From assembly GCF_030684315.1 (NCBI RefSeq), contig NC_081359.1:16316184-16380183 (forward strand): a stretch of 64,000 nt of DNA. Direction: 5' to 3'. Both the position numbers and the translations under genes were made by a program. Below are positions 12,320-50,225 of this stretch, in pieces; position 1 is the first letter of the stretch, and each line of letters starts with the position of its first letter. The DNA is from Stegostoma tigrinum. Its lineage: Eukaryota. The notes under the pieces are model-generated. The model saw only the letters and a program-made list of their open reading frames with translations, did not search any database and was not told where the DNA came from.

Positions 12320-13050
12320 TAAGACATCGGATCAAAAGAAGGCCATTTAGCCCTTCAAAACTGCTCCGCCGTTCAATGAGATCATGACTGACCTGATAAT
12401 CCTCAACGCTACATTTGTGTCGTTACCCCACATCCCTTGACTCCCTTGCTGATTTAAAAATTTCTCTGTCTCAGACTTATGTATTCTCATGGGCCCACCC
12501 TTGAGCCTTCTGCAGTCAAGAATTTCACAGATTTACTACCCACTGAGAGAAGGAATTGTTCTTCATCCCTCACCAATGGATGATCCTTTACTGTGAGATT
12601 ATGCCCTCTGGACATAGACACTCCCACAATCATAAACAGCTTCTCCATTTTCACCCTGTCAAGGTGCCTAAAAGTCATGTGTTTCCATAAGGCCTCTGCT
12701 CATTCTTCTAAACTTTAGTAAGTACAGGTCCAGCCTACTCAACCACTCCTCATAAAACCCATCCATACCCAGGTCCAAGATAATAAAATGTGAGGCTGGA
12801 TGAACACAGCAGGCCAAGCAGCATCCCTGAGATGCTGCTTGGCCTGCTGTGTTCATCCAGCCTCACATTTTATTATCTTGGAATCTCCAGCATCTGCAGT
12901 TCCCATTATCTCTCATACCCAGGTCCAACTTGGCGAACCTTCTCTGGACTGCGACCCGTGCCAGTGTATCTTTCTTTGCATAAGTGAACCAAAACTCTTC
13001 CTGGTATTTTAGGTGTGGTCTATCTAGTGCCTTGTATAATCTTAGGAAGA
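12320..13050 (-). mobile_element. CR1 LINE 3' fragment hosting a hairpin insertion
   Basis: ORF 12863..13093 LYKALDRPHLKY..VQRRFAKL. Confidence 0.85.
12779..12913. mobile_element. Penelope-derived hairpin element, family A (hammerhead region missing)
   Basis: Near-perfect inverted repeat flanked by the TSD catacccaggtccaa (12764-12778 and 12914-12928). Confidence 0.88.
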
Positions 13051-13833
13051 TTTCACTTTTTTTCTGTTTTCCTTTGATATTTCCAGCATGCACAGTTCTT
13101 TAACAGTTCTGTAGCAACACAAATGTTACATTTATGACATTTAAGTATAGTAGTTATGTCTGAATAGCTATCGTGTATGTTTTAGGTCTATTTTCCTATC
13201 TCCTTTGTGTGTGACTGACTTTGTCAGACATCTAGCAGGTAAGTCTGTCAACTGGCAAAGAATATATGGAACAGTAACCCCGAACTGCTAACTCTCAAAG
13301 TTCAAATTAGACGATGGCCTGGTGACATTACTACTAGACTGTTAATCCAGAGACACAGCTAATGTTCTGGGGATGTGGGTTCAAATCCCACCGTGGCGGC
13401 TGGTGGAATTTGAATTCATGACTGTGAATCCATTGTCAATTGTCAGGAAAAGTCCATCTGGTTGACTAATGTCCTTTAGGGAAGGACCTCACTTGGTCTT
13501 GCCAACATATGACTCCAGACCCCATACCAATGTGGTTCAGTCATAAATGCCCTCCAGGGCAATTAGCGATGGGCAATAAGTGCTGCCTAGCCAGTGATGC
13601 CCTCATCCCGTGTGTGAATAAAGAGGGGGAAAAAGAGTTGATCATGCCCCAAGAGCAAAAAGGCAAAATTGTAAAAATTCTCAAACTCATCCCTGAATCA
13701 CTCTACTTCTGGTTTTGACAAAATTGAGGAGGACACTTGTGCCCCACAGGCAAGTAAGACAATGAGCCGAAGAATTAATGGAAAGGACCAGGAATGCCTC
13801 TTTATTAGAGAATTGGTTATACAGTTTGAACAT

Positions 13834-13979
13834 CTGTCAAGGTGCCTAAAAATCATGTGTTTCCATAAGGCCTCTGCTCATGCTTCTAAACTTGAATAAG
13901 TACAGTTCTAGTCTACTCAACCATTCCTCATAAAACCCGTCCATACCCGGGTCCAACCTGGTGAACCTTCTCTGGACTG
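13834..13979 (+). repeat. Local direct duplicate of 12656-12950 lacking the hairpin insertion
   Basis: ctgtcaaggtgcctaaaa..tcatgtgtttccataaggcctctgctca...ccatacccgggtccaacctggtgaaccttctctggactg carries a single copy of the target site. Confidence 0.85.
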
Positions 13980-14729
13980 AGCTACCAAGCCTGAACTACC
14001 ACAGCCAGTACAGGGACTGACTGCACAGCAGTAGTATTGTGAAATGTCACACTGCAGCCATCAGGACAACTGAGCTAACTGACCCCCACAGCCCATAGGC
14101 AACTACCCTGTCAATGCAATTACCAGGTGGCAAATCTGTTGAAAGCATTTTGAGATATCCTGCAGATGGAGCCTGCAAAAAGCCTCGTCTGCTATTCATA
14201 AATTCCTTCACTCTGTTCCCGGCACTGAGTACGTATTGAGGCCAATCCTTTTTTATGTGTCAGGGCATTAACACTGTGGAACAATTGCTCAACCTACTTC
14301 GCTTATTCCACGAAAAGGGATTTTACCATGTAGTGTGAGGCCATTCAGCCCATTGTGTCTGTAGTAGCACTGTGAAATAGTCACCTAGTTAGTCCCATTT
14401 TCCTCACTTCTTTGCCCATAAGCCTTTTTTATTATGTTTTTAAATATTTACCTATCTTGCTTTTCAAATGTTGAAATGACTTCCACTGCCTTTTCAGAAT
14501 GCATACTCCAGATAAGAACAACTTGCTGTGTTTAAAAAAAAACAAAATTCTCCTCGTGTCTCCCTCTCATCCTTAATTGGAATTAAGGACCTATGTCCTC
14601 TGGTTACCACTCCTTTGTCACTGGAAACTTTTTTTTAAATTTACTCTATTAGAGCTCCTCATTGTTTTGGATGTCTCCATTAATTCTCAGCTAGAAGAAG
14701 AGCAATCCAGCTTCTTCAGCTCATAAAGC

Positions 14730-14975
14730 CCCTGAAGTGTGGAAGCAGGCCATTCAGGCCCTCCAAAGAGCATCCCACCAGACCCTATCCCTGTAACCCT
14801 GCATTTCTCATGGCTATTCCTCTTAGCCGACACATCCCTGGTCACTAGGGGTGATCCATGCAGACATGGGGAGAATGTGCAAACTGCACACAGACAGCCA
14901 CCCAAGGCTGGAGTTGAACTGGATCGTTGCCGCCGTGAGGCCTTAGACCTAACCGCTGAGCCACCGTGATGTCCA
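14730..14975 (-). mobile_element. HE1-type V-SINE (internally deleted)
   Basis: catggggagaatgtgcaaactgcacacagacag and ctaaccgctgagccaccgtg are the antisense V-domain and head. Confidence 0.85.
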
Positions 14976-15199
14976 AGCTACCACTGAAATAACTTCTACT
15001 GTCCTTTCAGACAGCACATCTAGACATTACACTTTCCAGATACTACATATAACTAAATTCCATTATCCCTGGTGCCATTCTAGTAAATGACTCACTTAAC
15101 CTTGGAAATATTGTAAAAATCATTGAATCCGTGCACTATTTTCAGGTTTCAGTATTTAAAGCGTGTATATTGGTGAACAGCATTGCCTTTTTTGTGCAG

Positions 15200-48269: not shown

Positions 48270-48640
48270 GATTATTACATGACCGAGAAAATAAAAACTT
48301 GTAATTTTGTGAGTATTCATGATGAATAAGATGAATTTACAGCTCACAGGAAGAAAGAATCAGTTGAGTTGAATTTAAGGATTCGAGAAGTGGGGTAAAC
48401 TTTCTAGATTTGACTGCAGAGCGATGGTGCTGAGGAATCGGTGAAGACTTCAGTTTTATTTTATTGTTTTTGTTTTATGTAACAAACTCATGTTTATTGT
48501 TGAAGAAAATCTGCAGCCCAGTGTGTTTGTGTTTCAGTGAATGACAATCACATTAAAACAAACAAAATATATAATCTGTCAACCCAGATTTCATTCTAGG
48601 ATCTAATGTGTCCATCAATAAAATAGCTGAGATTATAACA
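48270..48640 (+). mobile_element. LTR fragment related to the LTRs of the Gmr1-like element
   Basis: Shares gaatcagtt, tttcagtgaat, ccagatttca..ggatcta and the terminal gattataaca with 51465-51785 and 61300-61616. Confidence 0.55.
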
Positions 48641-49097
48641 TAACATCATAGGAACAAGTCCCACATTCTCATCACTCACTGTGTAATGAGGTTTCTCTTA
48701 AAATTTACATTAAAATTATTCTTCAGTTAATGAATTGATAAAGTCCCCTTTTTGTTTGCATAATTTATGTATGAAACTATTTATTTTTTGCTGACTCTGC
48801 CTCAATGAAGAATCTAGGCTTAATTCTTGGCTTTAAAATTCCCAAAAATCTTGCTAACAGGAGTATGTTTCATAAGTTTTAGGATATATGCTTGGTGATT
48901 TCCTTCCTGAAAATCGTATGAAGACAACTGTCCTGATTGTGAAACTGCAATTTTGAACCGTATTTAATCTGTAAAACCTTTCTCATATCAGCATTAAATT
49001 TAAGAACAGCTTCCCCAATCAGTCTCTCCTGCCCAGAAACAACAAGAGTGAAGTTCATTTATATTTTAACATGGTAAAATAGCTAGAATAATTAGAT

Positions 49098-49184
49098 CAG
49101 AGAGAGCTTTCTGAAGAAGGGCCCAGATCCTCTGATGCTGCTTGGCCTGCTGTGTTCATCCAGTTCTACACCTTGTTATCTCTG
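49098..49184 (+). mobile_element. Deleted single-arm family A remnant
   Basis: ctgaagaagggcccagatcc joined to tctgatgctgcttggcctgctgtgttcatccag; flanking repeat ataattagat. Confidence 0.75.
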
Positions 49185-49881
49185 GGATAATTAGATGCCT
49201 GTTTTTGACTGGGGTAGGCTTGATGAGCCAAAGGGTCTTTTTCTGTGCAACAGAAGACTCAGTGTATGATTAAAACATTCCAAAGCTTCAACGAGATTTG
49301 GGAGGTGGGTGTTCCCAAAGATTACTTGAAACCTGTCACATCAGAAGATATTTGGGCAGGTGACCTGGATCTTGTTAAGAGACGTAGGACTTGAGTAATG
49401 GCACAAAAGTGATTGGGAGGTTTAGAGAGGGGGCTCAAATGTGTTGGTTCAGACAGCTGAAGGCAGGGTTGCTAATAGTGGAGCAGTGAAAAATGGAGAT
49501 ACTCTGAGAGTTGTCAGACCAGAGGTGGTCACGGAGATGGCGATAGGAAGACTCTGAAGGAATACATTACAAAGATAAACATTATAAAATTAAGACGTGG
49601 CTGGACCAGTTTCAGTGTAGCTCAGTGAGCATGGGTGATAGGTGAATGTGATATGTTGTGAATTGATGACCTTAGACTTAGTACCAGTGGAGGGATGGAC
49701 AAGTGAATATTGAAATGGTAGTGTTTAGAGGGAACAAAACTGTGAGTTGGGGGGCAGGGGGTCTCAACAGCAGATCAGTTGAAGCGAGCACTGATGGGGG
49801 GATGTTACACAAGTGCGAACAATGTTCATAGGGAGCACCACCCTGGCCCAGTATTTCTCAGGCGGTGCCCACTGGACCATG

Positions 49882-50225
49882 GATAACAAAGTGTGAAGCT
49901 GGATGAACACAGCAGGCCAAGCAGCATCTTAGGAGCACAAAAGCTGACGTTTTGAGCCTAGACCCTTCATCAGAAATGGGGGATGGGGAGAGGATTCTGA
50001 AATAAATAGGGAGAGAGGGGAAGGCAGACCGAAGATGGATAGAGGAGAAGATAGGTGGTTGCAGTCGGAGAGAGATCCCCTGAGGTTGGTCCGGAGGGAG
50101 CAGGATAACTTCTTCAGGTTAGGCATCCTGGAAGAGGCTTCGCAGTGAGGTTAAAATTGTGACCAAAGATAATGGGAACTGCAGATGCTGGAGAATCCAA
50201 GATAACAAAGTGTGGAGCTGGATGA
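49882..50225 (-). mobile_element. Non-autonomous family A Penelope derivative: a 319-nt unit plus 25-nt terminal direct repeat (retrozyme-like)
   Basis: Direct repeat gataacaaagtgtg(a/g)agctggatga at 49882-49906 and 50201-50225; TSD tgcccactgga(c/t)catg at 49866-49881 and 50226-50241. Confidence 0.85.

Follow-up and report, generated by a model that had tools for sequence, protein, structure and literature searches.

The nine fold-back insertions in the NALCN introns of this shark are dead-on-arrival, one-off stubs that follow the "inverted copy plus tail" layout already published for Penelope-like elements (PLEs). They are head-to-head copies of the hammerhead-bearing terminal repeat (pLTR) of PLEs, and each was probably made anew by double priming on one RNA, once from each nicked strand of the target. 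They are stubs and not a self-propagating class because their centres differ, the arms of such insertions reach 2 kb, and the hammerhead core decays neutrally and is buried in the fold-back.

Nine fold-back insertions in NALCN introns

A sequence-only reading of the window (the whole 64,000-nt stretch of DNA analysed) had listed nine palindromic insertions, and all nine start where it placed them, with lengths of 135-232 nt. Each has its own target-site duplication (TSD), as had been proposed, in the form of direct repeats of 12-16 bp with 0-1 mismatch; in four of the nine, 2-6 bp of the TSD are shared with the element end. Palindromy held for the arms, which are 81-100% complementary, but not for the symmetry of the insertions, since one arm bears an extra tail of 30-36 nt. 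The insertions are listed below, with positions inside the element numbered from hammerhead C3 as +1.

12779..12913, untailed arm - strand, tailed arm + strand: family A head-to-head pLTR insertion; junction +46/+41, no hammerhead; TSD 15 bp (12764-12778 / 12914-12928)
32495..32686, tail left: family A insertion; junction +19/+21 with 7-nt filler; without CUGANGA; TSD 13 bp
33908..34127, tail left: family A insertion; core on - strand (34038-34011) with a C-A mismatch in stem III; TSD 15 bp
34690..34906, tail left: family A insertion; complete core, - strand (34819-34792), with a single mismatch in stem II; TSD 16 bp, 3 bp shared with the element end
35134..35365, tail left: family B insertion; core on - strand (35263-35234) with stem III broken, core of the + arm decayed; TSD 12 bp
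36053..36278, tail right: family A insertion; decayed core on - strand; TSD 15 bp, 1 mismatch
37587..37806, tail left: older family A insertion; cores on + strand (37717-37744) and - strand (37711-37684); TSD 15 bp, 1 mismatch
41348..41551, tail left: family A insertion; junction +14/+7; without CUGANGA; TSD 14 bp
43255..43484, tail left: older family A insertion; core on + strand (43390-43417); TSD 14 bp
41082..41300, + strand: frame with a NALCN exon (residues 477-544), host gene context

The location of all nine in introns of NALCN, which runs on the + strand, was borne out, and the exon at 41082-41300 matched its residues in a solved NALCN protein with an E value of 6.5e-36. Candidate frames at 6065-6313, 8427-8582, 15053-15289, 31940-32092, 38467-38652, 44030-44224 and 62387-62572 presumably bear further NALCN exons, on the strength of short NALCN motifs. 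Contigs of sequencing runs X1 and X2 span the flanks and enter several hairpin ends; these runs may come from the assembly's own sample and are not independent.

The hairpins derive from Penelope-like elements

The proposed PLE derivation was upheld by long copies from each of families A, B and C, in which the pLTR is immediately preceded by coding sequence for reverse transcriptase (RT) and GIY-YIG. For family A, copy L044 has an open frame of 708 aa with YIDD, a C-x5-C-x2-C linker at residue 530 and GIY-YIG; the Pfam match to GIY-YIG (E 0.0031) falls short of the cut-off, and homologues of the frame carry RT and GIY-YIG Pfam domains. The same link is seen in copy L151 for family B, and in copy L154 and the window copy for family C. 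The repeat closes the RT and GIY-YIG ORF and also precedes the ORF start, with the first in-frame ATG at +167. Among the recovered copies there was no intact full-length PLE, L144 being near full length yet frameshifted. In PMC8557442, the Neptune clade is described by a CX2-5CxxC linker before GIY-YIG (common to Nematis) and a CCHH motif; cysteine and histidine motifs (CCHH) are both present in L044, and the zinc-finger-like linker assigns families A and B to the Neptune/Nematis type. The traits of EN+ PLEs are likewise present, namely the pLTR, partial tandems and inverted 5'-truncated copies. Tandem units are frequent (e.g., L185, L053), and internally deleted tandem units of 310-440 bp look non-autonomous.

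The window holds the following further PLE-derived copies.

49882..50225, - strand: partial tandem, internally deleted family A unit, retrozyme-like; in order, pLTR end, tail, ORF start, jump to the 3' UTR, pLTR without tail; TSD of about 14 bp
49097..49183, + strand: short family A copy; internal deletion spans the hammerhead; flanked by a 10-bp direct repeat
42411..42540, + strand: solo tailed family B pLTR; core mutated
44562..44653, - strand: solo untailed family B pLTR; deletion past stem II
38950..39330 (approximate boundaries), - strand: 5'-truncated, non-hairpin family C PLE end; GIY-YIG C-terminal remnant and 3' UTR, with a decayed hammerhead at about 39019-38984

Family C had been placed among the nine hairpins; its single occurrence in the window (39011-38994, - strand) lies instead in this non-hairpin copy, whose core is decayed.

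The hammerhead motif is genuine, and its core is buried and decays neutrally

Minimal hammerheads were located with a purpose-made descriptor from which stem I was excluded, and 132 matches were found in 1.464 Mb compared to 3, 0 and 1 in three shuffles. A search of Rfam at E values up to 5 gave no hammerhead match, only sub-threshold matches, mostly to miRNA families. The identification of the motif as the minimal type-I hammerhead of PLEs was correct, and stems I and II covary between families: in young A, B and C copies, both proximal stem I pairs were Watson-Crick at 0.82-0.89 within families and at 0.00-0.07 when families were crossed. The numbering behind the predicted cleavage site was also right. 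The statement that most of the insertions carry the motif held in part, as CUGANGA..GAAA occurs on at least one strand in 6/9 and is absent from 12779, 32495 and 41348. The full hammerhead motif GAAACGUC is found only in 34690 (-) and 37587 (+), with a stem II mismatch in both, and 7/9 are without it.

The core had been described as free at the loop of the hairpin; it is base-paired with the opposite arm. By folding prediction, freeing it from the fold-back would cost 16.8-29.5 kcal/mol for all seven cores of six elements, and the lone pLTR was predicted to adopt no hammerhead fold and to be no more stable than shuffles (z -0.5 to 0.6). No excess conservation of the core was detected in genomic copies (decay of 14/1253 versus 136/8251, p 0.18); the core decays neutrally there, and only 28/60 short hairpins retain it. 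Action as a dimer, which had been suggested, fails in cis since each hairpin has at most one core per strand. We predict that, once inserted, a hairpin neither acts as a ribozyme nor propagates.

Each pair has one tailed and one untailed arm

The arms have two 3' ends, at +93 or at +123 to +128; of 327 arms, 127 ended between +86 and +101, and a further 154 ended no earlier than +112. In 1.464 Mb, 75 pairs comprised 58 mixed, 0 both-tailed, 1 neither-tailed and 16 unclassifiable, and 84 pairs at targeted loci comprised 71, 2, 1 and 10, respectively. One tailed and one untailed arm were thus joined in 129/133 classifiable pairs, and each of the 4/133 exceptions is attributable to a tandem or an over-extended alignment. 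Both 3' ends are in use among 177 unpaired arms as well (83 tailed, 66 untailed). TSDs were present in 92/103 young pairs, 13-17 bp long in 85/92; across the tabulation their length varied from 9 to 21 bp, which speaks against fixed-length TSDs. Their AT content is 63%, T is favoured at base one, and no strong target motif was seen in them, the border tallies being confounded by element sequence.

The two arms usually share a subfamily haplotype: 18/247 diagnostic comparisons (7.3%) were discordant, whereas 2000 shuffles averaged 0.38 and never fell below 0.25. This discordance exceeds the background of 3.0%, and the arms of 33908 disagree at 3/6 subfamily sites, so that some arms may stem from different templates. 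Two different RNAs as the general rule, which 33908 had suggested, failed on the shared haplotypes. Arm starts are correlated within pairs (rho 0.58, n=58), the arms of 4/11 long pairs stop 1-21 nt apart, and a short arm is joined to a long one in 3/58 pairs. The tailed arm reaches further 5' in 19/58 pairs, an outcome that a strict leading/trailing model does not predict.

The hairpins intergrade with inverted insertions that have arms of up to 2 kb. Short family A hairpins number 45 per 1.2 Mb, or about 1.2e5 genome-wide by extrapolation. Sixty hairpins gave 57 distinct junction signatures, and the four identical junctions (4/60) include two in each orientation with respect to the tail. In family C inverted pairs, the junction lies 45-100 nt upstream of their own hammerhead. 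The sequence-only reading had seen the hairpin as a mobilised class bearing a ribozyme; near-unique junctions, long-armed intergrades and an unconserved, buried core do not support it.

Junctions and 5' ends point to a likely RNA start and a likely cut site

The 5' ends of copies cluster at -5 to +10. Family A arms that start at -3, four nucleotides before the core, are preceded by a non-templated G in 27/34 vetted cases; long copies have a templated C at this position in 67/70. Genome-wide, G was found in 5699/8457 non-C cases before a -3 start, and in 85 of the first 100 true truncations listed. The partner arm is purine-rich at this site, which is controlled for only in the set unexplained by partner arm or TSD, where G occurred in 29/36 cases, or 27/34 after manual correction (null 0.26, p about 1e-10). 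Within the window, the - arm of 33908 stops four bases before C3, and the next base is an extra one, G in sense. G is also frequent before starts at -4 and -1, which makes the start a cluster. No G excess was seen at +29 (6/26 unexplained rows), and by eye G stood in front of 0/18 short family B copies that keep A at -3. Since an untemplated 5' G is taken as a cap signature for L1 (PMC9341517, PMC2831318), we infer that the family A mRNA is capped at about C(-3), with the hammerhead as its first 32 nt.

A palindromic junction exactly at the predicted cut site (AGCT from +29) was found in 19 of the first 50 loci, compared to 2/50 for ACGT at +24, 5-6/50 for GGCC at +16 and 0/50 for GGCC at +56, also in the first 50 loci each. 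Among non-palindromic starts +29 is not uniquely high, with 18 of 100 rows at +29, 22 at +34 and 11 each at +28 and +33, about 19 rows having been set aside as indel variants. In a rough comparison, as the search patterns differ, there were 2402 matches at +29 (mostly microhomology junctions), 5672 at -3 and 19,570 at -5 to +1. The cleavage site as the main 5' boundary was rejected on these counts, matches being far fewer at +29 than at -3. The AGCT junction could come from post-insertion slippage; it is likely that junctions genome-wide record the start of the element RNA and the ribozyme cut site.

Proposed mechanism and alternative explanations

Under double priming, an RT/GIY-YIG protein, probably a dimer as predicted for PAc of Anolis, would nick the target with a stagger and begin cDNA synthesis at two internal positions of the element's own mRNA, separated by 35 nt and close to its 5' end. 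After 90-130 nt each cDNA would reach the 5' terminus of that one RNA, and the two would be joined via microhomology or filler into a fold-back of 135-260 bp; priming at the 3' repeat would give the long-armed versions. A minority of templates would have self-cleaved earlier, after +28, leaving the perfect junction on the AGCT that starts at +29.

It is quite unlikely that the first cDNA snaps back and primes itself at a palindrome, the second arm then being copied from the first, as PMC3846280 suggests for inverted junctions of rotifer PLEs. Self-priming would account for shared haplotypes, matched arm lengths and perfect palindromic centres. However, first strands begun at +93 (66/177 unpaired arms) would yield neither-tailed pairs and other first strands both-tailed ones, yet only 4/133 pairs are of these kinds; nor can a copied arm exceed its template 5', yet either arm type is often the longer (31 versus 19 of 58), in L120 by about 1.6 kb. 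Priming of the arms on separate repeat copies, either the two pLTRs (5' and 3') within one tandem RNA or a pair of sibling RNAs bound to a dimer, is unlikely too. Tandem units are common, 3/58 pairs combine a short with a long arm, and there are a few haplotype-discordant pairs, 33908 included, but this offers no reason for the single tail or for long arms that stop 1-21 nt apart.

That the hairpins propagate themselves as non-autonomous elements, with transcripts of their own that cleave themselves and are then mobilised in trans by retrotransposition, is very improbable. The extrapolated copy number, the recurrence of some junctions (4/60; the AGCT class) and the seemingly non-autonomous 310-440 bp units would fit it, but not the 57 signatures among 60 hairpins, the even orientation of the four identical junctions, the different subfamilies to which AGCT-centred hairpins belong, or the loss of the core from all but 28/60. 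Hardly any credence is left for MITEs moved by a DDE transposase: the copies are short, numerous, inverted-repeat and TSD-flanked, but their TSDs vary from 9 to 21 bp, their ends are asymmetric and their sequence is the end of RT/GIY-YIG elements, in agreement with the claim that they are not MITEs.

Double priming on one RNA is our preferred reading. A bolder one is offered tentatively and is rather doubtful, namely that the roughly hundred thousand hairpins are a fossil read-out of the PLE reaction in which a dimeric RT/GIY-YIG protein copies one mRNA twice from two fixed sites, the cap sits four bases before the hammerhead, and cutting in vivo removes a capped 32-nt leader. If true, the ribozyme would be a decapping switch on the element's own mRNA and not an excisor of unit-length templates. 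The value of the hairpins lies in sample size, since junction counts argue against simple self-priming; the junctions also allow the transcription start to be predicted at single-base resolution and hint, from the genome side, at in vivo cleavage, for which a search of Anolis RNA-seq found no sign (PMC11167929). Such hairpins are easily mistaken for MITEs or microRNA precursors in annotation, and within host pre-mRNAs, e.g., that of NALCN, they are predicted to give rise to long double-stranded RNA.

Comparison with known systems

In the open literature searched, no paper dealt with hairpins of shark PLEs, with a PLE cap G or with PLE twin priming, and in the same scope there was no prior report of arms with a shared haplotype, G-fronted -3 ends or a junction hotspot at the cut site. 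The element type and its layout are already known, and there is no new mobile class here. In L1 twin priming, one RNA serves two cDNAs, each primed at a different nick in the target, and the resulting inversion lies within one TSD; the L1 arms copy non-overlapping parts of the RNA, whereas the shark arms copy the same stretch from two fixed sites.

Fold-back architecture has been published for PLEs (PMC8557442 Fig. 2; PMC3846280; PMC4209133), and the complex insertions of EN+ PLEs there have an inverted 5'-truncated copy and a 30-40 bp tail at one end (PMC8557442 Fig. 2; PMC3846280). The shark insertions resemble those of Craig et al. (2021) and Arkhipova et al. (2013) in their head-to-head inverted pLTR, one-end tail and variable TSD, and partial tandems and palindromic junctions occur in both; most shark products are stubs made up of the pLTR alone, at an extrapolated number of about 1e5 per genome. 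In the passages of PMC8557442 and PMC3846280 consulted, no one-tail counts, same-template arms, 5' G or cut-site junction were found. The origin of the inverted repeats and tail and the role of the hammerhead are posed as open questions in PMC11167929 and PMC8557442.

For the minimal type-I hammerheads of metazoan PLEs, dual motifs 100-700 bp apart on opposite strands have been noted, as well as a predominance of truncated copies (Cervera and de la Pena 2014, PMC4209133). They share with the shark motif CUGANGA, an extra nucleotide between 9 and 10.1, a palindromic 15.2-16.2, the lack of loop 3 and family-level covariation. The shark motif differs in a stem II of 4-6 bp and a proximal stem I of only 2-4 bp, and in family A it seemingly takes up the first 32 nt of the RNA.

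PAc (Poseidon, Anolis carolinensis; Frangieh et al. 2024, PMC11167929) cuts and extends both strands and is a predicted dimer; two internal RT start sites bound its tail, and cleavage is not needed, uncleaved RNA being the main template. Both systems have two internal start sites that bound the tail and a hammerhead near the ORF start. Shark families A and B are of Neptune/Nematis type with an ORF that starts at +167, after the tail, whereas the PAc ORF starts inside stem II. The PAc start sites in vitro are the same on both strands; the shark genome has one start site per strand, a pattern absent from the PAc in vitro pool.

Non-LTR retrozymes, derived from the PLE pLTR with a type-I hammerhead and recorded in one chondrichthyan (Li, Clavereau and Pollet 2026, 10.64898/2026.07.22.740005), fit the 310-440 bp tandem units (49882-50225, L185). 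They are head-to-tail arrays with at least two hammerheads on one strand, as are arrays of the L185 type, whereas in the nine hairpins the units face each other head-to-head and no strand has more than one hammerhead.

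Hairpin Insertions in the Window and the Genome Sample

All nine fold-back insertions that the sequence-only reading had placed in NALCN introns (starting at 12779, 32495, 33908, 34690, 35134, 36053, 37587, 41348 and 43255) were confirmed, with arm complementarity of 81-100% and direct repeats of 12-16 bp. They proved not to be symmetric palindromes, since one arm ends at +93 (C3 of the hammerhead being +1) and the other is longer by a 30-36 nt tail. The hammerhead motif ascribed to most of them held for both core boxes in 6/9, and the full motif was found in only 2/9; family C was present as a single decayed, non-palindromic copy at 39011. 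Other features were as follows.

32495-37806: six hairpins (five family A, one family B) inside 5.3 kb of one NALCN intron
529-630 (+): tailed terminal repeat (pLTR), old and diverged, akin to families A and B
49882-50225, with L185:6765-8434 and L053 outside the window: family A units shortened to 310-440 bp by internal deletions, head-to-tail, with varying deletion points
55460-56083 (-) and 62565-63161 (+): CR1/L2-type LINE ORF2 pieces in NALCN introns (by eye); in outside locus L145, frames of such LINEs are near-intact and reach 895 aa
34601 and 37750: sites where contigs of runs X1 and X2 have one base more than the window (allele, paralogue or error)
L131:9205-9547, L205:7524-8175 and L121:6567-6877 (outside loci): family A elements within or adjoining family B copies, hinting at nested targeting

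For the 5.3-kb cluster, the Poisson probability of at least five family A hairpins at the sampled density is ~2e-6, uncorrected for the choice of spot, and no random 10-kb stretch held more than three hairpins; targeting of this locus or open chromatin may account for it.

The 1.464-Mb sample, made up of the window, 200 kb of flanking sequence and 120 pieces of 10 kb each taken at round coordinates from 18 large contigs, contained 327 family A arms, whose 3' ends were bimodal (127 at +86 to +101, 154 at +112 or beyond, 46 in neither bin) and whose 5' ends reached out to -2 kb, 121 lying within -10 to +9. It also held 75 head-to-head pairs of 124 bp to 2.8 kb. The 45 short hairpins in the 1.2 Mb random part extrapolate to ~1.2e5 per genome. 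Of 103 young pairs, 92 had a TSD, and in 85 of these its length was 13-17 bp.

The Arms Are Terminal Repeats of Penelope-Like Elements

Upstream of the family A arm, long copies carried a GIY-YIG C-terminus and then a pyrimidine-rich 3' UTR. A related ORF lies upstream of the family B repeat in one locus (L151), and the family C repeat follows a GIY-YIG remnant that we take, from its sequence, to be of Poseidon type. Because RT/GIY-YIG coding sequence adjoins the repeats of A, B and C, the arms are identified by sequence as pLTRs of at least three Penelope-like element (PLE) families. A 708-residue open frame in L044 combines an RT YIDD motif, a C-x5-C-x2-C linker and GIY-YIG; a linker of this type is characteristic of Neptune and Nematis elements (PMC8557442, excerpt). 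The nearest named relatives of the element protein came from carpet sharks (74-93% identity, four best named matches). Tandem family A copies have an ATG at +167, beyond the tail, and the frame that it opens overlaps the 5' part of L144, itself matching residues 10-87 of full-length homologues. In L185:7452-7620, two short upstream ORFs, with ATG at +4 (in the hammerhead core) and +47, precede this main ATG; a cut at +28 would strip the cap together with the first.

The hairpins had been proposed as ribozyme-bearing fold-backs that a PLE RT/GIY-YIG protein mobilises; their reading as a new, propagating class fails. Their junctions are mostly unique (57 signatures among 60 short hairpins), and four hairpins with an identical junction split 2:2 in orientation versus tail. 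The core was retained on either strand in only 28/60 and decays at the background rate (14/1253 changes versus 136/8251 at other bases in young copies, p 0.18), G12, within a CpG, being altered in 13/143. It is also predicted to be buried: in the modelled fold-back of 34690 (-176.6 kcal/mol), stem II and GAAAC are bound to the opposite arm, and freeing the core would cost 17-30 kcal/mol in all cases computed. The hairpins are real, and their kind of element is already known. Because hammerhead motifs exceeded shuffles (132 in the 1.464 Mb sample versus 0-3) and stem I covaries between families, though absent from the selection criteria, the sequences argue that the hammerhead is under selection in the source lineages.

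Probable Double Priming of One RNA

One tailed and one untailed arm made up 58/59 classifiable pairs in the sample (16/75 set aside) and 71/74 in targeted loci (10/84 set aside). The four that broke this rule were inspected and proved to be tandems or an over-extended alignment. Unpaired arms used both ends about equally, and therefore independent choice would yield half mixed pairs. Arms disagreed at six subfamily-diagnostic sites in 18/247 comparisons, versus 0.38 in shuffles and a 3.0% background. Arm starts correlate within pairs, and in 4 of 11 long pairs the two stops are no more than 21 nt apart (L174, a likely reference artefact, was excluded). The long inverted insertions in L124, L160, L190 and L191 (arms 0.5-1.3 kb, stops 1-21 nt apart) are near-perfect palindromes of up to 2.8 kb, retained in the assembly.

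Simple snap-back self-priming of the first cDNA, as proposed in PMC3846280 (excerpt), would build the second arm, but the pairs expected from it, with a tail on both arms or on neither, are nearly absent. The best fit is a single RNA on which priming occurs twice, once from each target strand. This step, which we infer, agrees with the Poseidon protein of Anolis carolinensis (PAc): it cleaves and extends both strands, starting at two internal sites that bound the tail (PMC11167929, excerpt). Three observations speak against one strict route: the residual arm discordance, the discordant element at 33908 and the 19/58 pairs in which the tailed arm is the longer.

Probable RNA Start and a Possible Trace of Cleavage

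Long family A copies carried C at -4 in 67/70; where another base stood there, it was G in 5699/8457 copies genome-wide. Among the matches listed for 5672 true truncations at -3, G stood in front in 85/100, and in 49/64 once rows explicable by the partner arm were removed. Reading 63 such junctions singly, 27 were accounted for by partner arm or TSD and 29 of the other 36 had G (27/34 after two were moved by hand; null 0.26). Starts at -4 and -1 were likewise commonly preceded by G. The C(-3) context presumably resembles a TCT initiator. Family B copies also start 2-4 nt ahead of C3, in what we take to be an initiator-like context, and a cap-like G preceded 0/18 of these starts. Because the untemplated G before -3 resembles the base that is taken, for L1, to mark a copied cap (PMC9341517, PMC2831318, excerpts), family A RNA likely begins at about C(-3), four bases ahead of C3. 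A pLTR promoter was demonstrated in Drosophila Penelope (PMC2377424, excerpt).

Hairpins with short centres numbered 2454; among the 50 matches listed, 19 were perfect palindromes on the AGCT beginning at +29, the first base past the predicted cut; in the same 50, control centres gave 2 (ACGT, +24) and 5-6 (GGCC, +16), and GGCC at +56 gave 0/50 among the matches listed of 2298. The AGCT-centred hairpins stem from different subfamilies, and no G excess was found at +29 starts. Two cDNAs running off self-cleaved RNA would give this pattern, which is an indirect sign of cleavage. Slippage between the two AGCT copies after insertion could make such centres too. Counting against cleavage, non-palindromic starts at +29 were equalled in frequency by those at +34. 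Only a minority of templates would have been cleaved, which agrees with the dispensability of cleavage for PAc (PMC11167929, excerpt). It is less likely than not that all three readings (cap, single template and cleavage) are correct together; the junction-based mechanistic read-out is the part worth following up.

Comparison with Known Systems

In the openly accessible literature that was covered, we found no account of PLE hairpins in sharks, of the 5' G or of a junction at the cut site. The hairpins match the standard PLE layout, in which an inverted copy is joined to a tail at a single end (PMC8557442, PMC8969392, excerpts). The minimal hammerhead with its extra nucleotide is described in PMC4209133 (excerpt), as are dual motifs that lie on opposite strands. 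Every unit of the 310-440 bp arrays contains a hammerhead. These head-to-tail arrays are better candidates for dimer cleavage and non-LTR retrozymes: tandem pLTR-derived retrozymes, one chondrichthyan included, are described in 10.64898/2026.07.22.740005, and the arrays fit that description, whereas the hairpins do not.
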